NCBI RefSeq assembly: GCF_000009705.1
Contig: NC_003272.1
Span: 1,410,001 to 1,442,000, forward strand
Reading direction: 5' to 3'
DNA length: 32,000 nt
From: Nostoc sp. PCC 7120 = FACHB-418
GTDB lineage: Bacteria > Cyanobacteriota > Cyanobacteriia > Cyanobacteriales > Nostocaceae
How positions within the stretch are numbered: position 1 is the stretch's first letter; every line of letters starts with the position of its first letter. Under the pieces are notes generated by a model. The model made no database searches. It saw only the letters and a list, made by a program, of their open reading frames with translations, and had not been told where the DNA came from. This document shows positions 1,069-19,130 of the stretch, piece by piece. Both the position numbers and the translations under genes were made by a program.

Positions 1069-1821
1069 ATGAATAAATGGGCAATTTTAAGCGGTATTGA
1101 GGGCAATTTGGCAGCTTATGAGGCTGTAATGGCAGATATTAAGCGCCAAAGTAAACAGATAGAAGCTTTATATATTTTGGGTGATTTGGTGGGGCCAAGA
1201 CCAGAAGTGGAAAAAGTTGTAGAACGAGTCCGCAACCCACTAAACGGTGAGTTAGAACCTCTGGTTTGTAAAGGTTGGTGGGAAGAACAGTGCTTCATTT
1301 TGCATGGTCTTGGCCCCACTGGCGAGGCTGATGATTTACTAGTGCAGTATGGCGGAGAAACAGTTAAGTTACTTTGGGATTCTGTTTCTCGTCAAACGGT
1401 GCAATGGTTAAGAACTCTAGATTTTGGTTTTTTTGAACTAGATTGTTTATTAATTCACGGTACAACTGTATCAATTGATGAAGCATTAACTCCCGATACT
1501 TCACCAATTCAAATGCTTGACCGCCTGACAAGAATGCAGGCAAATAATTTATTTTGCGGTCGTTCTGGTTTAGCTTTTCAATATCACCTTCAAGCTGGTT
1601 CAGTAACTACAGGTATCACAACTCTTGATAGTCCAAAATCCCCGGAAACTATGACCATTTCTCCGCGCCAGATAATTGGAGTGGGTAATGTAGGTAGAAC
1701 ACCAGGTGTAGCAACATACACTCTCTATACTCCCGCTACAAACCATGTAGAATTTAAAACTATCCGTTATGGTATTGGTCAAGGATTTCAGCGTAATTCT
1801 GTTAAAGCTATCTCATCTTAA
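1069..1821 (+). CDS. Degenerate metallophosphoesterase paralog (probable pseudo-enzyme)
   Basis: 250-aa ORF 104 nt downstream of the previous gene. Same block order but ligand positions replaced: SGIEGN, ILGDLVGPRP, CKGWWEEQ, IHGTT, CGRSG (in place of GHTH), VGNVGRTP. Confidence 0.7.
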   Translation: MNKWAILSGIEGNLAAYEAVMADIKRQSKQIEALYILGDLVGPRPEVEKVVERVRNPLNGELEPLVCKGWWEEQCFILHGLGPTGEADDLLVQYGGETVKLLWDSVSRQTVQWLRTLDFGFFELDCLLIHGTTVSIDEALTPDTSPIQMLDRLTRMQANNLFCGRSGLAFQYHLQAGSVTTGITTLDSPKSPETMTISPRQIIGVGNVGRTPGVATYTLYTPATNHVEFKTIRYGIGQGFQRNSVKAISS

Positions 1822-1882
1822 AGTGAGTTATGCCAAATTAATATGAAGCTGCATAGAATAATTGAATGCAGATGCACGCAGC

Positions 1883-1924
1883 GAAAAGTTCTGTAGGAGG
1901 GTTTCCCTCCGTAGGAAACTTTTC
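1883..1924. repeat. Dispersed hairpin module (GAAAAGTT-CTGTAGGAGGG-TTT-CCCTCCGTAGG-AAACTTTTC)
   Basis: Imperfect inverted repeat just downstream of the second phosphoesterase gene. CTACG/CGTAG-type hairpin modules recur at 2571-2725, 14838-14925, 22990-23060, 26770-26825 and 29445-29525. It may also act as a terminator. Confidence 0.5.
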
Positions 1925-2135
1925 AAGACAGAGAAACGCGGATAAATCAACGGATTTTATTTTCTGGTGTTCCCTAAAATAACTATAAGCACGTCGGATG
2001 ATTTTGCATCTATCCTGCGTAGTAAATATATAAGTTTGATTTCTGTCTCCAGATTTATGAATAATTAGCGGACAGTGCTTATAGTTAAGTTCTTAGGTGA
2101 GGCTAAACCTAGTCACGCAAGTGAGGCTAAAAATC

Positions 2136-2210
2136 ATGTTACTTAAATATTTGTATTTGCATTGTTTCTCAATCAATGATTGGTTCAATTGCAATTACCA
2201 TTCTGAATAA
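2136..2210 (+). CDS. Candidate 24-aa micro-ORF (MLLKYLYLHCFSINDWFNCNYHSE)
   Basis: The ATG lies 9 nt after AAGTGAGG (2119-2126). This is the same extended SD context (AAGTGAGG-N8/9-ATG) seen at the precursor genes at 8141 and 8674. No GG leader and no family recognised. Confidence 0.2.
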   Translation: MLLKYLYLHCFSINDWFNCNYHSE

Positions 2211-2570
2211 ATCTTCATGTTAGAGGTTTGCTTTTTAAGATTCCCTAGTTAGCACCGTAAATTTGGGGATTTTAAGCTAACAGGCTTTTAAATTACCTAT
2301 TTTTTGTGGTCAGAGTAAATGTCTGGGATTTACTATAAATTTCGACTGTTAACTCTAGATTAACCATAAGATAGTAGGCAACTGATATCTGTTTGCTTGT
2401 ATGTGGAGTATATGCACTGTAAAGTGGGCATCTTGTCCGCCTAGTATCTCCCAGTGAAACTTGCAACAGCTTCTTAAATCAATCTATAGTCTTGTGTGTG
2501 AGTTAACCTAATTCTGGAAAATACTCTAGAAAACGGAACTGAAACAACGTGAGTTCGACGGTTGGAACAA

Positions 2571-2725
2571 CCCCTCTCCATAGCTTGCTACTCTACGAGT
2601 TCTCCGTAGGAGTACCCGTAGGGTACCTCCCCTGCAAGGAGAAAGGCTTTAAAACCTTTATTTTTTTCGATATTTCATGCTCTTTACTCCCCTCTCCGCG
2701 TCGGAGAGGGGTTGGGGGAGAGGTC
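2571..2725. repeat. Cluster of short dispersed hairpin modules
   Basis: Contains CTCTACGAG...CGTAGG, GTACCCGTAGGGTAC and CCTCTCCGCGTCGGAGAGGGGTTGGGGGAGAGG. These are related to internal modules of the MITE at 9781 and 25635 (CCTCTCTCCGCTTCGGGGAGAGG, GGTTGGGGG). Confidence 0.5.
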
Positions 2726-3294
2726 AAAAAAGACTTGTTGAACTCCTAAGAAAACAGCAAGTTTTCTTTCGCCCTTCCAGTGGGTGCGTCTTCGTTGGAG
2801 ACTCACGTTGAAACAGAATTTTTTGATCAGACTATATAACAGATGACCACTTCCCTCTCTGGTTTTGCTACAGCTTCCTTTGTTGAATAAGGATATAGCT
2901 TTGTTCATGCTGCAAGTTGTTCTTGCTTGCAATGCAAACAAAATTTCCCATGTGTATATTGTGGAAAAAGGGGTAGAGGAGGTGATAATAACTCGCTCAA
3001 CGTAAGTGAGGTTTTTGAGGGAGTTTGAGCGTTCTCCTCTATATTTCTCCACACGTTATCCGCGTTAGAGATTCCAGAAAAGTAAGCACATCTCAAAGCA
3101 CATTCTTTTCTTATTCCCCATATCTTATTATAGCCAATTTGGAACATAAATTGGAGAGAAGAGAAAAATGTTTGTATCAATCTGCAAACTAAAATTAACT
3201 CATCAACCCATGAATAACAGCGTCTATAAGAATAACCAAACACATCATTTAACAGCCTAATTTCTATCATATTCATATACCAAGGTGCAGTATC

Positions 3295-5427
3295 GTGAAC
3301 ACCTTACGCCGCCAAGAGAATGATTTTTGGCATCGATCGCATCAGCCAATTCCCGAAGAACTTCCTACCTTGGAAGCTAACGAATTTTTACCCCATATTG
3401 GGAAATGGACAAGTATCGGTGGGGTAGTTGTCTTCAGTATCTTTATTGTGGGGGTGGTGCTAACATCTGTTCTCAAGTACAACGTGACGGTGAAAGTGCC
3501 GGCGACTATTCGCCCTGTGGGAGAATTAAGGCTGGTACAGTCGCTAATTAATGGCAAAATTCTCAAGATTAGTGTTGCAGAAAATCAGATGGTAGCCGAA
3601 GGACAAGCGATCGCCTACATTGATGATTCCCGCCTCCAGACTCAAAAGAGCCAGTTACAAAACCTCATCCAGCAAAGTCAACTACAACTCAATAAAATCG
3701 ATGCACAGTTGGGAGAAATCGACGCTCAAATTACAGCACAGACAAATTTAAACGATCGCACCACAATCGCTGCACAAGCTGAACTGAGTGGTACACAACG
3801 CAACTATGCCGATCAGCAAGTGAAAGCTACGGCGGATATGACACAAGCACAATCAGCCTTAACTTTAGCCAGGATCCAAAAAGACCGCCTGCAACGGGAA
3901 AAGCTGTTAACGGCGACTGTGCGAGAAACAGAAGCCGCTTTGCAGTTAGCCAGGGTGCAAAGCGATCGCCTACAACGGGAAAAGCTGCTAAAAACTACCG
4001 TAGATGAAGCGGAAAGAGGCTTAAAATTGGCGAGAGAACAACGCGATCGTTTACGACGGGATAGGCTTCTCAGGACGACTGTGCAAGAAACACAGACGGC
4101 TTTGAACTTAGCAAAGGCGCAACAAGAAAGATTACAAAGGGAACAACTCTTAGCCAAAACTGTGCAGGAAGCAGAAACCGCTTTAAATTTAGCCAGGGTA
4201 CAACGCGATCGCCTACAACAAGATAGAGTTTTAACTGCAACTGTCCAAGAAGCAGAAGCCGCCTTGAGTTTAGCTAGAGTACAGCGAGAAAGATTACAGC
4301 CGATAGTAGCATCAGGAGCGATCGCCCGTAGTTTCTTCGAGGAAAAAGACCAAGCCGTAATATCGGCGGAGGCGAGGCTGGAACAAGCCAAAGCTAACGC
4401 TAAAAATCTGCTGGAAGAGAAAGAACAAGCGGTGATTGCGGCGGAGGCGAAGTTGGAACAAGCCAAAGCCAACGCCAAAAATCTTTTGGAGGAGAAAGAA
4501 CAGGCTGTCAAATCAGCAGAAGCGAAGCTAGAACAAGCCAAAGCCAACGCTAAAAATCTCTTAGAAGAAAAAGACCAAGGGGTGATTGCGGCGGAGGCGA
4601 AACTGGAACAAGCCAAAGCCAACGCCAAAAATCTCTTAGAAGAGAAAGAACAAGAGGTGATTGCGGCGGAGGCGAAACTGGAACAAGCCAAAGCTAACGC
4701 CAAAAATCTCCAAGAAGAAAAAGACCAAGCTTTAACAGTGGCGCAAACAAATCTCGCCAAGGCCAGAACAGCGATAAATCCCAATGATGCTAACGTGACT
4801 GTAGCATCGGAACGAATTAAACAAGAACAAGCCAGGGGTGAAGTTACCTTAGCCGCCTTGAAAAAAGAAAGAGAAACTTTGCTACAACAACGCCTAGAAT
4901 TTCAAAAACAACTGGATAGAAACCGCAAAGAACTACAACAAGCCGAAAATGACTTAAAACAGAGTATAGTCCGCGCACCCATCGCCGGGACAGTGCTGCA
5001 ATTGAATTTGCGTAACCCTGGACAGGTAGTACAACCAAGTGAGGCGATCGCTCAAATTGCGCCGTTAAATGCACCAATACAGATCAAAGCTAACGTCCAG
5101 GCGCAAGATATCAACAAAGTCAAACCCGGTCAACAAGTCCAAATGCAGGTTTCTGCTTGTCCCTATCCAGACTACGGCACTCTCAAAGGAACAGTCAAAA
5201 CAATCGCCCCAGATGCCCTACCCGTAGCCAACAATAACCCACAGACCACCACAGCTAAAGCCACAGCCTATGAAGTCATTGTAGAACCACAAACCCCATA
5301 CGTTGGTAGAGGCGATCGGCAATGTCAACTTAAAACCGGGATGCAGGGTAAAGCAGATATTATTTCCCGTCGAGAAACAGTATTACGCTTCATCCTCCGC
5401 AAAGCCAGATTAATTGCAGATTTGTAA
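3295..5427 (+). CDS. HlyD-family membrane-fusion (periplasmic adaptor) protein with a greatly expanded coiled-coil
   Basis: 710-aa ORF with a GTG start. It has an N-terminal TM helix (WTSIGGVVVFSIFIVGVVLTSVL), lipoyl-like halves (KILKISVAENQMVAEGQAIAYID ... RAPIAGTVLQLNLRNPGQVVQPSEAIAQIAP) and a C-terminal beta-barrel-like region. About 300 aa of Q/R/E/A/K/L-rich repeats lie in between. It sits directly upstream of an ABC exporter. Confidence 0.85.
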   Translation: MNTLRRQENDFWHRSHQPIPEELPTLEANEFLPHIGKWTSIGGVVVFSIFIVGVVLTSVLKYNVTVKVPATIRPVGELRLVQSLINGKILKISVAENQMVAEGQAIAYIDDSRLQTQKSQLQNLIQQSQLQLNKIDAQLGEIDAQITAQTNLNDRTTIAAQAELSGTQRNYADQQVKATADMTQAQSALTLARIQKDRLQREKLLTATVRETEAALQLARVQSDRLQREKLLKTTVDEAERGLKLAREQRDRLRRDRLLRTTVQETQTALNLAKAQQERLQREQLLAKTVQEAETALNLARVQRDRLQQDRVLTATVQEAEAALSLARVQRERLQPIVASGAIARSFFEEKDQAVISAEARLEQAKANAKNLLEEKEQAVIAAEAKLEQAKANAKNLLEEKEQAVKSAEAKLEQAKANAKNLLEEKDQGVIAAEAKLEQAKANAKNLLEEKEQEVIAAEAKLEQAKANAKNLQEEKDQALTVAQTNLAKARTAINPNDANVTVASERIKQEQARGEVTLAALKKERETLLQQRLEFQKQLDRNRKELQQAENDLKQSIVRAPIAGTVLQLNLRNPGQVVQPSEAIAQIAPLNAPIQIKANVQAQDINKVKPGQQVQMQVSACPYPDYGTLKGTVKTIAPDALPVANNNPQTTTAKATAYEVIVEPQTPYVGRGDRQCQLKTGMQGKADIISRRETVLRFILRKARLIADL
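3859..4302 (+). repeat. In-frame tandem array A within hlyD: 5.5 units of 81 nt (27 aa)
   Basis: Units: LTLARIQKDRLQREKLLTATVRETEAA / LQLARVQSDRLQREKLLKTTVDEAERG / LKLAREQRDRLRRDRLLRTTVQETQTA / LNLAKAQQERLQREQLLAKTVQEAETA / LNLARVQRDRLQQDRVLTATVQEAEAA / LSLARVQRERLQP. Confidence 0.9.
4339..4776 (+). repeat. In-frame tandem array B within hlyD: 5 near-identical units of 75 nt (25 aa) plus one degenerate unit
   Basis: EEK(E/D)QAVIAAEAKLEQAKANAKNLL occurs five times, followed by EEKDQALTVAQTNLAKARTAI. Differences between units are mostly synonymous. Confidence 0.9.
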
Positions 5428-5570: not shown

Positions 5571-7739
5571 ATGCTTAATTTCTTCAAACTCCGAAAAAAT
5601 TACCCCTGTGTTTTACAGTTGAGTGAAGAAGATTGTGGAGCCGCTTGTATAGTTTCCATTTGTCGGCAACACGGACGCTTTTTAAGTATGAATAAAAGCC
5701 GTGAAGCAGTAGGGACTGGACAACTGGGTACAACCTTATTAGGTCTAAAACGTGGCTCAGAAAATCTCGGTTTTAATGCCAGAGCCGTGAAAGCATCCCC
5801 CGCCATCTTAGACAGAATTAAAGAAATTCAACTACCAGCAATTATTCATTGGCGGGGCTATCACTGGGTAGTTTTATATGGCAAAAAGGGAAGCAAATAT
5901 GTCATAGCTGATCCAGCCGTAGGCATTCGTTATATTCACCGGGAAGAGTTAACAGCCGCCTGGAATGGGGTCATGCTATTAATGGAGCCAGATCACCAGC
6001 GTTTTTCTCAACAGCCCCACGACAAACCACAGCCAGGATTTACCCGCTTTCTTCAGCGCATCTTGCCCTATCATGGGCTATTGTCCCAGGTTTTTATGAT
6101 CAACATTGTCCTGGGTATATTGGCTTTAGGCTCACCAGTCCTGATTCAAATCCTCACCGATGATGTCTTAGTTCGTGGCGATACTCAACTACTAACTGTG
6201 ATAGCGATCGCTGTCATCATCATGAATTTATTTAGTAGTGGTATGCAGGTATTAGAATCTACGATGATTGCCCATTTTAGCCAACGCCTGCAATTAGGTT
6301 TAGTCTTGGAATTTGGGCGGAGAATTCTGCAATTACCATTGACTTATTACGAAGCTCGTCGCAGTGGAGAGATTACCAGCCGACTTAGAGATATTAATGA
6401 AATTAACCAATTAGTCTCGCAAGTGGTAGTGCTTTTACCTAGCCAATTTTTCATAGCTGTAATTTCTTTTGGCTTAATGCTTTTTTATAGTTGGCAGTTA
6501 GCATTAGCGGTAATCCTCATCGGTGCATTGATGAGTTTAGCTACATTGCCGCTTTTACCAGTCCTGCAACAAAAAACTCGTAGTCTTTTAGTTTTAGGTT
6601 CAGAAAATCAAGGCGTGTTAGTAGAAACTTTTAAAGGCGCACAAGTACTTAAAACTACAAATGCTGCACCGCAATTTTGGGATGAATTACAAAATCGTTT
6701 TGGTCGTCTGGCAAATTTAACATTTAGTACTATTCAAATTGGCATTATCAACAATACTATTGCGAAATTTCTCTCTGCTATCGGCGGTGTAGTTTTATTA
6801 GGGCTAGGGAGTATTTTAGTTATCCAAGGAAAGTTAAGTATTGGTCAAATGTTAGCAATTAATGTACTACAAGTTAATGTATTGACATTAATTAGCTCAC
6901 TAGTAGGTTTAGTAGATGAATATTTTCGTTCCCAAACTGCTATCTCTCGGCTTTTGGAAGTGATTGATGCTACTCCCGAAGTAGATAATACTTCTCAAAA
7001 ACCATTCGCCCAAATCTCTAGTGATGCAGACATTCGTTTTTCACATATCAACTTTCACCATCCTGGTAGAGTTGACCTCTTGGAAGATTTTTCTCTCAAG
7101 CTACCAGGAGGACAAATTATAGCTTTAATTGGCAAGTCAGGCTGTGGTAAAAGTTCCTTAGCCAAACTCATGGCAGGATTATATCAGCCCAATTCTGGTA
7201 ATATCCGCATCGGCTTTTATAATATTCAAGATATTGCCCTTGATTGTTTACGGCAACAAGTAGTTTATGTACCTCAAGAACCTCATTTCTGGAGTCGTTC
7301 AATTTTAGAAAACTTTCGTTTAGGAAGTCCCCATATTTCCTTTGAAGAAGTCGTCACAGCTTGCCAAATTGCCGATGCTGATAGTTTTATTAGCCAACTA
7401 CCAAATAAGTATCAAACAGTGCTAGGAGAATTTGGAGCAAATCTTTCTGGAGGACAAAAACAAAGACTAGCGATCGCCAGAGGTATTCTCAATAATCCCC
7501 CAGTCCTAATTTTAGATGAAGCAACAGCCGGACTAGACCCAGTTAGTGAAACTCAAGTCCTTGATCGGTTGTTAGAATCACGTCAAGGTAAAACTACAAT
7601 TCTCATTACCCATCGTCCCAGCGTAGTCCACCGCGCTGATTGGATTGTATTACTTGATCAAGGCAAAATACAACTCCAAGGTAATTTAGAAGATTTCCTG
7701 TCTCAACAAGGAGAGCATCTAAAGTTTTTATCTCTATAA
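5571..7739 (+). CDS. Peptidase-C39-domain ABC transporter (double-glycine leader cleaving bacteriocin/peptide exporter)
   Basis: 722-aa ORF. N-terminal C39 motifs: LSEEDCGAACI (catalytic Cys), GYHWVVLYG (His), VIADPA. A multi-helix TM domain follows. NBD motifs: Walker A GKSGCGKSS, signature LSGGQKQRLAIARG, Walker B VLILDEAT, H-loop ILITHR. Confidence 0.9.
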   Translation: MLNFFKLRKNYPCVLQLSEEDCGAACIVSICRQHGRFLSMNKSREAVGTGQLGTTLLGLKRGSENLGFNARAVKASPAILDRIKEIQLPAIIHWRGYHWVVLYGKKGSKYVIADPAVGIRYIHREELTAAWNGVMLLMEPDHQRFSQQPHDKPQPGFTRFLQRILPYHGLLSQVFMINIVLGILALGSPVLIQILTDDVLVRGDTQLLTVIAIAVIIMNLFSSGMQVLESTMIAHFSQRLQLGLVLEFGRRILQLPLTYYEARRSGEITSRLRDINEINQLVSQVVVLLPSQFFIAVISFGLMLFYSWQLALAVILIGALMSLATLPLLPVLQQKTRSLLVLGSENQGVLVETFKGAQVLKTTNAAPQFWDELQNRFGRLANLTFSTIQIGIINNTIAKFLSAIGGVVLLGLGSILVIQGKLSIGQMLAINVLQVNVLTLISSLVGLVDEYFRSQTAISRLLEVIDATPEVDNTSQKPFAQISSDADIRFSHINFHHPGRVDLLEDFSLKLPGGQIIALIGKSGCGKSSLAKLMAGLYQPNSGNIRIGFYNIQDIALDCLRQQVVYVPQEPHFWSRSILENFRLGSPHISFEEVVTACQIADADSFISQLPNKYQTVLGEFGANLSGGQKQRLAIARGILNNPPVLILDEATAGLDPVSETQVLDRLLESRQGKTTILITHRPSVVHRADWIVLLDQGKIQLQGNLEDFLSQQGEHLKFLSL

Positions 7740-8008: not shown

Positions 8009-8131
8009 TCATGAGTCAAAAGTAGTAAAATTTATTTTTATAAATACTACTACAGAATAATTTAAATAAACAAGTGATATTGAATAATAAAAACATAGGT
8101 AATAACAAACCTATGTTGTACGTAAGTGAGG
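8009..8131 (+). promoter_or_regulatory. Conserved upstream cassette of precursor gene 1
   Basis: Blocks TCATGAGTCAAAAG (8009-8022), AGAATAATTTAAA (8054-8066) and ATATTGAA (8077-8084). Hairpin CATAGGT-N8-ACCTATG (8094-8115). AAGTGAGG SD (8124-8131). The same blocks recur at identical spacing upstream of gene 2. Confidence 0.55.
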
Positions 8132-8140
8132 TAAAAGTTC

Positions 8141-8329
8141 ATGTCAAACCAAATGCTAGCTTCTAATTTACTTGAAGATTTATCCTTAGATCAACAGCAA
8201 TCTTTGGCTGGTGGTCAAACCTTTGATGATGGAGATGATGAAGGCGGAAATACACGACTTGGCACTGGTGAAACTCGTCGCTATAGAATTAGAAGTGTCA
8301 GCATCGTTAGTGTCCGCAAATTGTCATAG
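8141..8329 (+). CDS. Double-glycine-leader precursor peptide 1 (25-aa leader + 37-aa core)
   Basis: MSNQMLASNLLEDLSLDQQQSLAGG | QTFDDGDDEGGNTRLGTGETRRYRIRSVSIVSVRKLS. Strong SD 9 nt upstream. The leader is shared with two neighbouring ORFs. The gene lies downstream of a C39-ABC exporter and has its own terminator. Confidence 0.8.
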   Translation: MSNQMLASNLLEDLSLDQQQSLAGGQTFDDGDDEGGNTRLGTGETRRYRIRSVSIVSVRKLS

Positions 8330-8545: not shown

Positions 8546-8665
8546 TCATGAGTCAAAAGCTAGATTTTTAATATTAAATTATCCGACCAAAGAATAATTT
8601 AAAATATATGTAAATATTGAACAATTAAATTATCAGGTGTTAGACACCTATGTGATTAAGTGAGG
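8546..8665 (+). promoter_or_regulatory. Conserved upstream cassette of precursor gene 2
   Basis: TCATGAGTCAAAAG (8546-8559), AGAATAATTTAAA (8591-8603) and ATATTGAA (8614-8621). Hairpin AGGTGT-N3-ACACCT (8635-8649). AAGTGAGG SD (8658-8665). Block 1 to block 2 is 45 nt and block 2 to block 3 is 23 nt, exactly as in cassette 1. Confidence 0.55.
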
Positions 8666-8673
8666 TAAAAAAT

Positions 8674-8961
8674 ATGTCTAATCAAACCGTTGCATCTAAT
8701 TTGTTGGCAGATTTATCCACAGAACAACAGCAGTTTCTGGTGGGTGGTCAGCAAACAACTCAACCACGACAAGGTCAAGGTGGTTGTCCGGGTGGTATGG
8801 GTATGGGTTCTGGTGGTATGGGTATGGGTTCTGGTGGTACTGATCAAGATAGCTGGGATCAAAATGGCTATGATCAGGAAGGGGGTGGCTCTGGAGGTAG
8901 CTTCGGTAGTCGCCGTCGCCGCTTGCGAGTAAGACTTTCCGGCTACGTCTATCTCAGATAA
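8674..8961 (+). CDS. Double-glycine-leader precursor peptide 2 (25-aa leader + 70-aa Gly-rich core)
   Basis: MSNQTVASNLLADLSTEQQQFLVGG | QQTTQPRQGQGGCPGGMGMGSGGMGMGSGGTDQDSWDQNGYDQEGGGSGGSFGSRRRRLRVRLSGYVYLR. SD 8 nt upstream. This frame was chosen over overlapping ORFs because it carries the conserved leader. Confidence 0.8.
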   Translation: MSNQTVASNLLADLSTEQQQFLVGGQQTTQPRQGQGGCPGGMGMGSGGMGMGSGGTDQDSWDQNGYDQEGGGSGGSFGSRRRRLRVRLSGYVYLR

Positions 8962-9156: not shown

Positions 9157-9484
9157 AATTTAAAATTACTTTTTGAGGATAAAATTTTCAGCCATAGTCT
9201 ATTAATAATGCAGTACAAATATATTATTTTTGCATCAAAATCTAAATTCAAAAATAAAATATTATTTGTATTTATACCTGCAATAATTACAAAAAGATAA
9301 GTAAAAATATCATACTTCTTAAGCATGATATTTAGTATTTTTATTTCCACCTCTAGGGGAGTTTAATTTGTCAAAATTCTTCCTATAAATAGAATCAAAG
9401 TATTACATATTTATGGTTCCCGTCCATATTTGTGTAAACCTTCTAGGCGTGTACAAATAATAGATAGAACAGAGGAAAAGAATC

Positions 9485-9691
9485 ATGTCAAATCAAGTTT
9501 GGCAATCCGATTTACTCGTGGAACTATCCACAGAAGACCAGCAAAATCTAGCTGGAGGTCGCTGGGGTCATTTCGGTGGTTTCGGTGGTTTCCGGGGTCG
9601 CTCTTGGTTTAGAACAGGCAGGTTCTGGGGAGGTCGCTCTTGGTTCAGACCAGGTGGTTTCCGGGGTCGCTGGGGTGGTTACTGGAGATAA
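9485..9691 (+). CDS. Double-glycine-leader precursor peptide 3 (25-aa leader + 43-aa Gly/Arg/Trp/Phe core)
   Basis: MSNQVWQSDLLVELSTEDQQNLAGG | RWGHFGGFGGFRGRSWFRTGRFWGGRSWFRPGGFRGRWGGYWR. GAGGAAAAG SD 9 nt upstream and own terminator. Confidence 0.8.
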   Translation: MSNQVWQSDLLVELSTEDQQNLAGGRWGHFGGFGGFRGRSWFRTGRFWGGRSWFRPGGFRGRWGGYWR

Positions 9692-9730: not shown

Positions 9731-9770
9731 GACAAGTCTTGATTTATCGTAAATCAGACTTGTCTTTTTG
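9731..9770 (+). terminator. Rho-independent terminator of precursor gene 3
   Basis: About 15-bp stem GACAAGTCT(T)GATTTA / TAAATCAGACTTGTC with a short loop, followed by TTTTT. Confidence 0.75.
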
Positions 9771-9780
9771 CTATTTATAA

Positions 9781-9960
9781 CGCCGTGTGCAACTTTCTCT
9801 CAAACCTAACCCCCAACCCCTTCCCTGCAAGGGAAGGGGAGCAAGATTCAAAGCCTCTCTCCGCTTGCCTAACGGCAGGCTAACGCCAACGGGGAGAGGT
9901 ACTCTACGAGAAGCGCTCCGCGCTATGGAGAGAGGTTTCAAAAATAAGTTGCACATCGCG
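9781..9960 (+). mobile_element. MITE-like element, copy A (180 bp, with two nested insertions)
   Basis: Termini CGCCGTGTGCAACTT ... AAGTTGCACATCGCG form a 15-nt imperfect TIR. Copy A equals the reverse complement of 25635-25767, apart from extra segments GCCTAACGGCAGGCTAACGCCAA and ACTCTACGAGAAGCGCTCCGCGCTAT. Confidence 0.75.
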
Positions 9961-17789: not shown

Positions 17790-19130
17790 TTAAACGCTAA
17801 CACTATCAGTAATACAGGTCTTTATCAGTTCTTCAACACCTGCTATTGGTAAGATTTTGGTTTGTAATTGCCGAGCTACTTCTTCAACACTCATATCATC
17901 TAAAAAAACTAATTCTCCATGTTTGAGCATGACATTAGGTAGCAAAATGCCTCCACCTAAATCCTGTTCTTTTAAGTGTAAAAGTAAATCGTGTCCAGTA
18001 ATTAACCCGGTAACACTAATAGTTTGTCCCCAGTAATCACTAGATAAAGCACGCATATTTATTTCTAATCCTTCCACCGCATTTAAGCTTTTGAGAATTG
18101 GTTGAAAGGCTTTTTCTACAGCATTACCAACAACCCAAGTTAACTTTTTGGGATGGTTGATTTTTGCTGGTAATAATTCCGCCGCAGTCTCAGCAAATTG
18201 TTTGAGAAATAACCTAATTGAACCTACACCATTATCAATTTGGGGGTATTCTTCGTACTCAGCTTCGCTAGGTAATTCCTCACCCGCAATCAAAAACCAT
18301 TCGTCTGCTAACCAAGCCACATTAGAACCAAATTGTCGGCGAAATTCTTGAGTTAGCGATCGCACCTGTGCAATCACTTCTTGGGCTTTCTCTCTAGTTA
18401 CAGGTATAAGTTCGTCTTCTTCAGGACGAAATCTTGTTAACCCGACTGGTACAACTGCCACTGAGGCAACGGTAGGCACATCCCTATCATGAAATGACGC
18501 TAAATCCCGTAGTGTTTGTTCCAGATGTTTGCCATCATTTATACCAGGACACACAACTACTTGAGCATGGATTTGCAGCCTTCTGGTTTGAAACCACCGC
18601 AACTGGTCTAATATTTGCGCCGCACGGGTATTTTTCAGCAGTCTAATTCTCACTTCCGGTTCCGTCGCATGAACGGATACATATAAGGGAGACAGACGCA
18701 TTTGTTCAATCCGTTGCCACTCCCTTTCCGGTAAATTGGTGAGAGTTAGATAAGAGCCGTATAAAAAACTTAACCGATAATCATCATCTTTTAAATACAG
18801 GCTAGAACGCTTACCTGGGGGTTGTTGGTCAATAAAACAAAACGGACAACGATTATTGCACTGAATTAGACCATCAAACAAAGCCGTTTCAAACTCTAAC
18901 CCCAGGTCTTCGTCGTAGTCTTTCTCAATTTCGATATGATGAGTTTTGCCAGAAGCGTCTAAAACCTCCAATTCCAGGAACTCATCAGAGCATAAAAATT
19001 TATAATCAATTAAATCGCGGGGCTGTACACCATTAATAGCTACAAGCGCATCCCCCGCTTCAAAGCCAATCTCAGCAGCTATAGAATCAGGTAGTACTTT
19101 GGTGATACGGGCGGGAAGAATAGCAGCCAT
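17790..19130 (-). CDS. PDZ + radical-SAM-like Fe-S protein (DUF512 family, cyanobacterial)
   Basis: 446-aa ORF. N-terminal PDZ-like GFEAGDALVAINGVQPRDLIDY, a CX3CX2C cluster motif CNNRCPFCF, and a long conserved C-terminal region. Confidence 0.7.
   Translation of the reverse strand: MAAILPARITKVLPDSIAAEIGFEAGDALVAINGVQPRDLIDYKFLCSDEFLELEVLDASGKTHHIEIEKDYDEDLGLEFETALFDGLIQCNNRCPFCFIDQQPPGKRSSLYLKDDDYRLSFLYGSYLTLTNLPEREWQRIEQMRLSPLYVSVHATEPEVRIRLLKNTRAAQILDQLRWFQTRRLQIHAQVVVCPGINDGKHLEQTLRDLASFHDRDVPTVASVAVVPVGLTRFRPEEDELIPVTREKAQEVIAQVRSLTQEFRRQFGSNVAWLADEWFLIAGEELPSEAEYEEYPQIDNGVGSIRLFLKQFAETAAELLPAKINHPKKLTWVVGNAVEKAFQPILKSLNAVEGLEINMRALSSDYWGQTISVTGLITGHDLLLHLKEQDLGGGILLPNVMLKHGELVFLDDMSVEEVARQLQTKILPIAGVEELIKTCITDSVSV

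Follow-up and report, generated by a model that had tools for sequence, protein, structure and literature searches.

A Gly/Arg/aromatic double-glycine-leader peptide encoded beside a peptidase-containing exporter in Nostoc sp. PCC 7120 and its recurrence in Nostocales

What becomes of a peptide that consists largely of glycine, arginine, tryptophan and phenylalanine, and does it stand alone? This question is raised by asr1204, a short gene of Nostoc/Anabaena sp. PCC 7120. It lies in the stretch of DNA analysed here, 32,000 nucleotides of the chromosome from position 1,410,001 to 1,442,000, which we call the window and in whose coordinates all positions of PCC 7120 are given. The product of asr1204 is identical to BAB73161.1 and reads as a precursor with a double-glycine (GG) leader and a low-complexity core:

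9485..9691, plus strand: asr1204 precursor open reading frame (ORF), ATG start, 68 aa, MSNQVWQSDLLVELSTEDQQNLAGG followed by RWGHFGGFGGFRGRSWFRTGRFWGGRSWFRPGGFRGRWGGYWR
9485..9559, plus strand: double-glycine leader MSNQVWQSDLLVELSTEDQQNLAGG, 25 aa, net charge -4, predicted helix
9560..9691, plus strand: core RWGHFGGFGGFRGRSWFRTGRFWGGRSWFRPGGFRGRWGGYWR with the stop codon, 43 aa
9596-9630 and 9632-9666, plus strand: two 35-nt direct repeats that code for GRSWFR(T/P)G...
9566/9575/9644/9653 (span 9566..9685), plus strand: repeats based on GGTGGTTTC that code for GGF(R)G modules

A recount of the core bore out the composition given in an initial annotation of this DNA: 14 Gly, 10 Arg, 7 Phe and 6 Trp among 43 residues, which amounts to 86.0% G/R/W/F, with a charge (K+R-D-E) of +10 and no Asp or Glu. 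Lys is absent as well, and the remainder is made up of two Ser and one each of His, Thr, Pro and Tyr. All 10 Arg residues lie within two residues of an aromatic one. For the predicted mature peptide we calculated an average mass of 5198.75 Da (5195.564 Da monoisotopic) and an isoelectric point (pI) of 12.0. The G+R+W+F content of the real genes in the window is 17%, and among stop-free 43-aa segments in all six frames it has a mean of 0.18 (sd 0.08). Outside asr1204, the highest value reached by any such segment is 0.51, compared to 0.86 in the core. Thus, the composition of the core is far beyond chance expectation.

The core is built from modules that are copies of one another. GGFRGR (core positions 9 and 32) and GRSWFR (13 and 25) each occur twice, as initially annotated. 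GRWG had also been counted twice, but the core proper has a single copy (position 36), the other one starting at the second Gly of the cleavage motif. The corresponding nucleotide repeats were each recovered twice: GGTCGCTCTTGGTT at 9596 and 9632, within the 35-nt repeat of 83% identity, GGTGGTTTCCGGGGTCGC at 9584 and 9653, and GGTCGCTGGGGT at 9557 and 9665. Codon usage in the core is skewed as well, with GGT at 12 of 14 Gly codons (41% in the background) and TTC at 6 of 7 Phe codons (19%), counts that are not independent because the modules are mutual copies. A similar but weaker codon trend was observed in other genera.

Is such a product likely to leave the cell? Four genes upstream on the same strand bear on this point:

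3295..5427, plus strand: alr1200, HlyD-family periplasmic adaptor (membrane fusion protein), 710 aa; Pfam HlyD_3, HlyD_D23 and Biotin_lipoyl_2
5571..7739, plus strand: alr1201, peptidase-containing ABC transporter (PCAT); Peptidase_C39 (9.8e-35), ABC_membrane and ABC_tran
8141..8329, plus strand: asr1202, GG-leader cargo 1, with an acidic patch and then a basic motif at the C-terminus
8674..8961, plus strand: asr1203, GG-leader cargo 2, with a GG leader

Alr1201 aligned over its full length with PCAT1 (4RY2, E 1.4e-111), including the catalytic Cys (EEDCGAAC) and His (YHWVVLY), and is the predicted leader-cleaving exporter of asr1202, asr1203 and asr1204. The asr1204 leader ends in ...NLAGG and carries, besides GG, L-4, D-8, E-9, S-11, L-12 and L-15. 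At position -7, where a hydrophobic residue is expected for a PCAT cargo, it has Gln, as does the Nostocales leader family throughout. The gene is linked to a C39 PCAT with catalytic residues and to an adjacent HlyD gene, and we found the same linkage in the other loci inspected. This agrees with the assignment of asr1204 as a GG-leader cargo in the initial annotation. In Gram-negative bacteria, a TolC-like outer-membrane protein completes such exporters; the outer-membrane channel partner is not encoded in the window.

We propose that the acidic amphipathic 25-aa leader would be recognised by the C39 domain of the adjacent Alr1201 and cut after Gly25 during export via Alr1201, Alr1200 and a TolC-like channel, the last by extension from Gram-negative systems. 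The released product would be an unmodified, disordered polycation of 43 residues, 5.2 kDa and a charge of +10. We consider it highly probable that asr1204 is a real gene, that its leader is recognised by Alr1201 and that its product is cut after the GG motif and exported unmodified.

The signals around the ORF are in line with an expressed gene:

9368..9395, plus strand: promoter-like TTGTCA-16 nt-TAGAAT, 10 of 12 consensus matches, about 90 nt before the asr1204 start codon
9472..9475, plus strand: Shine-Dalgarno-like GAGG, 9 nt before the asr1204 ATG
9731..9769, plus strand: terminator-like hairpin followed by TTTTT, -25.8 kcal/mol, z = -3.85

A. variabilis and N. parmelioides share both promoter-like hexamers exactly or almost exactly; in these two species promoter, ORF and terminator are all kept. 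GAGG is invariant across an upstream alignment of eight loci, and the terminator hairpin also occurs in relatives. Further terminator-like hairpins lie 3' of alr1201, asr1202 and asr1203. Judged by these signals, asr1204 is a genuine gene that is transcribed on its own and codes for a precursor with a double-glycine leader; its transcription start is predicted near position 1,419,402 of the chromosome. Each of the three cargo genes (asr1202, asr1203 and asr1204) appears to form its own transcription unit. An Rfam scan of the whole window gave no match.

The initial annotation had implied a singular cargo, and had suggested a search for GG-leader ORFs with cores of more than 70% G/R/W/F. A word-indexed homology search with the whole precursor returned near-identical relatives only, and blastn against a plasmid collection gave no match. 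Phmmer, run exhaustively against 1.84 billion representative proteins (E <= 0.001), yielded seven matches, namely a deletion variant of asr1204 (see below) and six others, all with the same leader and a G/R/aromatic core, for example RYGFRRGGFRRGGFRRGGFRRFGYFF and YGYYGGGYGRPYYGRPYYGRPYYGRPYC. A profile made from these matches then detected 135 clusters (E <= 1). Every named one belonged to Nostocales, with genera including Nostoc, Anabaena, Dolichospermum, Nodularia, Sphaerospermopsis, Calothrix, Cylindrospermum, Komarekiella, Goleter and Halotia, and essentially all were annotated as hypothetical. The leader MS[DN]Q.I.SDLLVELSTEEQQLLSGG is common to more than 120 Nostocales clusters.

We defined the class by a core, split at GG, with at least 70% G/R/W/F/Y and no Asp or Glu. 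55 of the 135 clusters have such cores, a fraction that is inflated because the query profile itself held cores of this kind. Thus, the composition is not singular but recurs in at least 55 Nostocales protein clusters. On average these cores contain 37.5% Gly, 16.2% Arg, 10.5% Tyr, 9.7% Phe, 9.5% Trp, 5.8% Pro, 3.1% His and 0.5% Lys, which corresponds to an Arg:Lys ratio of about 32:1. Their mean length is 35 residues and their mean charge +5.9. The C-terminal residue is aromatic in 37 of the 55 and Cys in 10.

We then looked at the genomic setting of the class. A genome-contig scan gave two loci, and further loci were gathered through contigs carrying exact proteins. In total, eleven loci outside the PCC 7120 clade were inspected, six found via the peptide and five via the exporter. 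The asr1204 frame is conserved across genera. In the six peptide-found loci, all from other genera, the gene order is HlyD, PCAT and short GG peptides, in some cases preceded by long genes of the CTB family. The Gly/Arg/aromatic peptide is the last cargo gene in all six; in one of them (L008) the second-last belongs to this type as well. Downstream of the cluster usually come a convergent alpha/beta hydrolase gene, a redoxin gene, pyrH and frr, as in the window.

Since these six loci had been found through the peptide, we countered the sampling bias by drawing five more through orthologues of Alr1201, which are 77-90% identical across Nostocales:

L016, Fortiea contorta: Gly/Arg/aromatic cargo present, YYGSGFGFGRGYGRGYGRGF...
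L014, Trichormus azollae: Gly/Arg/aromatic cargo present, WGGYSWGGGPWGGGPWGPW...QRRHPYW
L013, Cylindrospermum stagnale: no Gly/Arg/aromatic cargo
L017, Aliinostoc: no Gly/Arg/aromatic cargo
L015, Cylindrospermopsis: no cargo genes downstream at all

In L016 and L014 the Gly/Arg/aromatic peptide is again the last GG peptide. With two of the five exporter-anchored loci positive, it is not a universal component of the locus; the cargo type is rather recurrent, in a variable slot of the array.

How does the core change over time? The asr1204 ORF is intact, with neither frameshift nor stop, in PCC 7120, FACHB-709, ATCC 29413, CCY 9910 and N. parmelioides. Between PCC 7120 and A. variabilis, the leader differs by one nonsynonymous and four synonymous substitutions, the core by four nonsynonymous (H to S, R to G, T to A, R to G) and one synonymous. 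A conserved leader with a fast-changing core is the usual pattern of leader-dependent secreted peptides such as bacteriocin and antimicrobial peptide cargos, and asr1204 appears to follow it. A metagenome contig (L012; ERZ926325 k127_30233) that is otherwise 100% identical to PCC 7120 carries an exact in-frame deletion of 36 nt, corresponding to window positions 9596-9631 between the two GGTCGCTCTTGGTT repeats, which leaves a precursor of 56 aa. An assembly collapse is unlikely here, as the repeats of 14-18 nt are much shorter than the assembler k-mer (k127). A 45-aa variant (P0008) fits a loss between the two GGFRGR modules. Together, the deletion and the 45-aa variant indicate that the asr1204 repeats are recombinationally active. 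Public assemblies also hold a frameshifted variant of 88 aa (P0006). On this comparison, the class appears to evolve by repeat expansion and contraction, retaining composition rather than sequence.

The same data could be read as decay, with the copy of the PCC 7120 clade a relic that yields no stable product. The excess of nonsynonymous over synonymous changes in the core (four versus one relative to A. variabilis), the circulating deletion variant, the loss of an otherwise conserved upstream motif and 5' hairpin, and the fact that we located no report of asr1204 expression in the searchable literature point in this direction. However, the ORF is intact in the five genomes named above, the substitutions (R to G, H to S, T to A) preserve the composition, the deletion is in frame, the strong promoter-like site, the ribosome-binding site and the terminator are kept, and the codons are biased towards GGT and TTC. 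We therefore regard a decaying or untranslated ORF as very unlikely.

Has this peptide been described before? Asr1204 is listed in Table S3 of Wang, Fewer & Sivonen 2011 (PLoS One 6:e22384; BA000019 1419485-1419691, 68 aa, group III) with a mass of 7943.77 Da, a pI of 12.325 and a charge of +6.5, as a putative bacteriocin precursor labelled 'NHLP'. The precursor mass computed here is 7943.69 Da. Their group III clusters have the same architecture as the asr1204 locus, HlyD and C39-ABC genes with arrayed short precursors. The words arginine, tryptophan and glycine-rich are absent from the text of that study, and neither the composition of asr1204 nor its recurrence in Nostocales is discussed there. 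The initial annotation knew of no such composition in a bacterial GG-leader cargo, and this needs to be divided. The gene is annotated, was catalogued in 2011 and its cluster was re-examined in 2025 (PMC12267927), so both the gene and its double-glycine PCAT-cargo kind were already known. Its core composition is newly examined here. In the searchable literature we did not find an acid-free, Lys-poor, repeat-built Gly/Arg/aromatic class, its spread in Nostocales or its placement at the 3' end among the cargo genes.

The 'NHLP' label is not supported, since no NHLP or Nif11 model of NCBIfam matched asr1204 at E <= 1; the leader of 25 aa also compares with about 70-80 aa in NHLP precursors (TIGR03793). 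Among the closest known systems is the CTB family (NF038167, CTB family bacteriocin, 'cyan_ocin_like'; PF28158), with which asr1204 shares the leader MS.Q.I.S.LL.ELS.EEQQLL.GG. The match reaches 23.4 bits (cut-off 32) over positions 1-23 of 72. CTB proteins have a conserved core, ADFELAGSNF...VNTAAQDLLGLG (ending NTAAQDLLGLG), which asr1204 does not. Below the cut-off and without the CTB core, asr1204 is not a full member of the family. In tblastn searches with six canonical CTB proteins, only leaders were matched, and there is no canonical CTB gene in the window. Precomputed annotation places no PF28158 mark on asr1204 (P0001) although many relatives carry one, and our Pfam search, with a copy that lacks PF28158, gave no match for the asr1204 peptide.

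In other genera, one to four long canonical CTB genes (PF28158) lie upstream of the HlyD gene, and PCC 7120 has none at 1800-3300 (loci compared: L007 15-1464, L013 359-2276, L014 392-2410). In Nodularia spumigena CCY9414, phosphate starvation for 7-14 days induces NSP_RS14110-14125, which are annotated 'CTB family bacteriocin' (PMC9846622).

The cyclophane-type GrrA/OscA1 peptides (TIGR04260, 'Cyano_gly_rpt'), which are modified by radical-SAM enzymes, are likewise Gly-rich and aromatic-rich repeat precursors from cyanobacteria. This raises the question of whether asr1204 encodes a ribosomally synthesised and post-translationally modified peptide whose aromatic, Arg or Gly residues are altered by unlinked enzymes (radical-SAM cyclophane formation, prenylation), in which case the linear peptide would not be the bioactive product. 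Such a view has its merits: Wang et al. 2011 presented clusters of this kind as sources of modified bacteriocins, cyclophane-forming radical-SAM enzymes act on aromatic-rich repeat cores, and one relative (P0010) matched TIGR04260, if faintly and driven by composition (13.8 bits, cut-off 31, E 0.064). Asr1204 itself, however, matched none of TIGR04260, NHLP and Nif11 at E <= 1, and judged from local gene lists there is no modifying enzyme, including any radical-SAM maturase, in any inspected locus. The only radical-SAM gene in the window (radical-SAM/PDZ/DUF512, 17790..19130, minus strand) was judged unrelated to the cluster, being 8 kb away on the opposite strand and beyond the housekeeping genes pyrH and frr. 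In addition, many aromatic-x-x triplets of asr1204 end in Gly, which has no beta-carbon of the kind used in known cyclophane links. A modified product is thus quite unlikely, and we return to the unmodified peptide.

What could an exported, unmodified polycation do? Outside the cell, its guanidinium and aromatic groups would bind polyanionic surfaces. Tentatively, we favour an antimicrobial or allelopathic function, by permeabilisation of a membrane or envelope, as the most likely one; the peptide would then be a cyanobacterial counterpart of class II microcin-type secretion whose core converges with armadillidin and other cationic, glycine-rich antimicrobial peptides from animals. This preference, which is drawn by analogy, is based on the juxtaposition of Arg with Trp, Phe or Tyr in the absence of acidic residues, on the fast-evolving, repeat-driven and non-universal cargo slot, and on the close compositional parallel with armadillidin H. 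The latter is a linear peptide of about 50 aa with six GGGF(H/N)(R/S) repeats, 47% Gly, a charge of +7 and a pI of 12; it is unstructured, membranolytic and of broad spectrum, with a GRPY-like start and a GYR-like end (PMC5031766). Asr1204 resembles it in its GGF(R)GR repeats, its pI of 12 and its charge of +10, but has less Gly (33% versus 47%), much more Arg and Trp, and a GG leader instead of a eukaryotic signal peptide.

Two further groups of peptides invite comparison. Indolicidin and tritrpticin are small, unstructured, Pro-rich peptides of 13 aa in which Arg stands next to Trp and acidic residues are absent. Asr1204 shares this juxtaposition and the lack of acidic residues; it differs in being Gly-rich, repetitive and longer. 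Class IIa microcins such as microcin V are unmodified, below 10 kDa and often Gly-rich, and are exported with a double-glycine leader through a PCAT, a membrane fusion protein and TolC. They are, however, anionic or hydrophobic, with specific outer-membrane receptors and an adjacent immunity gene, whereas the asr1204 core is a low-complexity repeat with a charge of +10 from a cyanobacterial host, with no immunity gene seen.

Several observations weigh against an antimicrobial function. BLASTP of asr1204 versus armadillidin gave E = 49, that is no homology, and the likeness is one of composition and repeat style only; the initial annotation's analogy with antimicrobial peptides is thus reasonable in composition without extending to sequence. 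The same annotation had called the core unstructured. AlphaFold, run on an alignment of 20 sequences, gave a helix at leader residues 4-24 and a core without secondary structure, in a model of low confidence (predicted local distance difference test 52, predicted template modelling score 0.14) that fits a disordered core but is no proof of disorder; a PDB sequence search with the core found no match. ORF lists offered no conserved small membrane protein between or after the cargo genes and thus no candidate immunity gene. This is weak evidence, but counts against a bacteriocin or microcin because such loci usually have one. The locus is not a mobile element but part of a conserved chromosomal backbone (hydrolase, redoxin, pyrH, frr), which would also suit a housekeeping extracellular role. 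Counterparts in other genera keep an upstream GAGTCAAAAG motif and a 5' hairpin, both lost from asr1204 in the PCC 7120 clade. Finally, the main texts of the searchable literature do not name asr1204, and we located no report of its expression, secretion or activity.

Some of these points, the conserved synteny and the lack of an evident immunity gene, are in line with a role in matrix or adhesion. The PCAT-secreted polycation would then bind anionic sheath or exopolysaccharide (alternatively extracellular DNA or polyphosphate) and possibly the neighbouring acid-tract peptides. By cross-linking or coacervation it would shape biofilm, aggregation and sheath, as do the EbfG proteins exported by PteB in Synechococcus elongatus. 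In strain PCC 7942, EbfG1-4 are small GG-motif proteins whose C39-ABC exporter lies beside HlyD, as at the asr1204 locus. Alr1201 is 55.8% identical to PteB, and a 2025 study that also names Alr1200 ranked the asr1202 cluster among the three best EbfG/PteB-like candidate clusters in Anabaena (PMC12267927). The neighbouring asr1202 was induced 11-fold in biofilm in a 2026 study (PMC13156569), and orthologues of asr1202 are present in other genera.

The composition can also be read in this way. Gly spacers together with Arg and aromatic residues form the sticker-and-spacer pattern of phase-separating sequences, and the class combines such spacers with a marked excess of Arg over Lys. In nearly every locus, cargos with poly-acidic tracts are encoded alongside. 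On the other hand, EbfGs are reported as amyloid-forming matrix proteins, unlike the Gly/Arg/aromatic polycation of asr1204. The authors of the 2025 study found no BLASTp homologues of EbfG1-4 in Anabaena; their best identities were in the asr5139 cluster, which they preferred as the EbfG equivalent (PMC12267927). The cargo is also missing from three of the five exporter-anchored loci, which is unexpected for a core structural component. We regard a matrix or adhesion role as the leading alternative and one to be taken seriously, if less probable than the antimicrobial function. It is compatible with antimicrobial activity, as a cationic peptide in an anionic sheath could do both. A more specific version, in which the Gly/Arg/aromatic cargos would combine with the acid-tract GG peptides and anionic sheath polysaccharide into an extracellular gel or complex coacervate that surrounds the filaments of Nostocales, is unlikely. 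If true, it would amount to a genetically encoded, PCAT-exported, phase-separating matrix that might double as an antimicrobial coat and be tuned through its repeats.

Last among the functions, a pheromone-like signal could be sensed by the producer or by neighbouring filaments. Gram-positive PCATs export pheromones, a signalling cargo has been proposed for HetC of the same organism (PMC10986499), and hypervariable cores could set pherotypes. Yet neither the window nor most loci have a linked sensor kinase or response regulator, and low-complexity repeats of variable length that are conserved in composition only are unlike specific receptor ligands. Signalling has very little probability in our view, and the antimicrobial function stays the favoured one.

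Among cyanobacterial double-glycine-motif peptides, only the Synechococcus EbfG proteins are known to have a phenotype. What appeared to be a single odd ORF is now a defined class of at least 55 clusters, found in Nostoc, Anabaena, Dolichospermum, Nodularia, Fortiea, Trichormus azollae and others. Its hallmarks are a conserved leader, a Gly/Arg/aromatic core with far more Arg than Lys, an aromatic or Cys C-terminus, a position as last or second-last cargo gene and putative evolution by repeat change. If antimicrobial, its members would represent a bacterial, unmodified, PCAT-exported counterpart of animal glycine-rich antimicrobial peptides, with a possible part in the ecology of blooms and symbioses. 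As matrix ligands, they would be relevant to how multicellular cyanobacteria assemble sheaths and biofilms. In either case, an easily synthesised family in a genetically tractable model could help to explain the role of cyanobacterial GG-motif peptides.

Some observations concern the regulation of the cargo genes. Upstream of asr1202 and asr1203, a 13-nt motif, CATGAGTCAAAAG, is identical at 8010-8022 and 8547-8559 (plus strand), 131 and 127 nt before the respective starts, and the copies sit in a 58-nt repeat of 71% identity. In other genera, variants of the motif, (G/A)A(G/A)TCAAAAG, precede short GG-peptide genes by 122-128 nt and Gly/Arg/aromatic genes by 156-167 nt; next to these variants come TTTAATCT and a 5' hairpin, CATAGGT...ACCTATG, on the downstream side. 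The motif is absent before the long CTB genes and before asr1204 of the PCC 7120 clade. It may represent the site of a shared regulator.

In the adaptor gene alr1200, four 81-nt and four 75-nt tandem repeats (3829-4233 and 4317-4765, plus strand) encode coiled-coil heptads, LQREKLL...TVQEAE... and AKANAKNLLEEKEQAV..AEAKLEQ. Owing to these repeats, Alr1200 measures 710 aa, compared to 496-659 aa in its orthologues, which points to a lengthened periplasmic hairpin.

Wang et al. 2011 had also listed an unannotated precursor, 'CDS21' (2549-2749, plus strand). It has no recognisable GG leader and overlaps a dispersed G-rich repeat, TTACTCCCCTCTCCGCGTCGGAGAGGGGTTGGGGGAGAGGT (2684-2724), whose inverted partner lies just downstream of asr1204 (9804-9844). 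For both reasons, 'CDS21' is probably no cargo gene.

The cargos encoded together with the Gly/Arg/aromatic peptides form conserved classes of their own. In one, an acidic tract (FDDGDDEGG, EDETDDESEFDDEGE) precedes a basic, beta-strand-like C-terminus of the form (K/R)xF/YRI(R/T)SxxIVxVRKL(S/R) or RRYP(V/I)RLxGxL (window 8141-8329 and 8674-8961; L007 6388-6606; L009 6827-7033; L010 6656-6883; L016 7424-7645; L017 7452-7643). Further co-encoded cargos are rich in Cys and Lys and have poly-Asp/Glu tails. Acid-tailed peptides are encoded beside a polycationic one in nearly every locus. Several genera, but not PCC 7120, also encode a conserved protein of some 100-110 aa that begins about 30 nt downstream of the PCAT stop (L007 5759-6091, L011 5937-6248, L013 7199-7528, L014 7204-7503, L002 9391-9690). 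It carries a leader-like motif, LSE.EQE.L(V/A)(A/G)GQ, followed by ...FFFQ.T.I....NL....SQ.S.Y..SQ.T...., and may constitute a further class of cargo.

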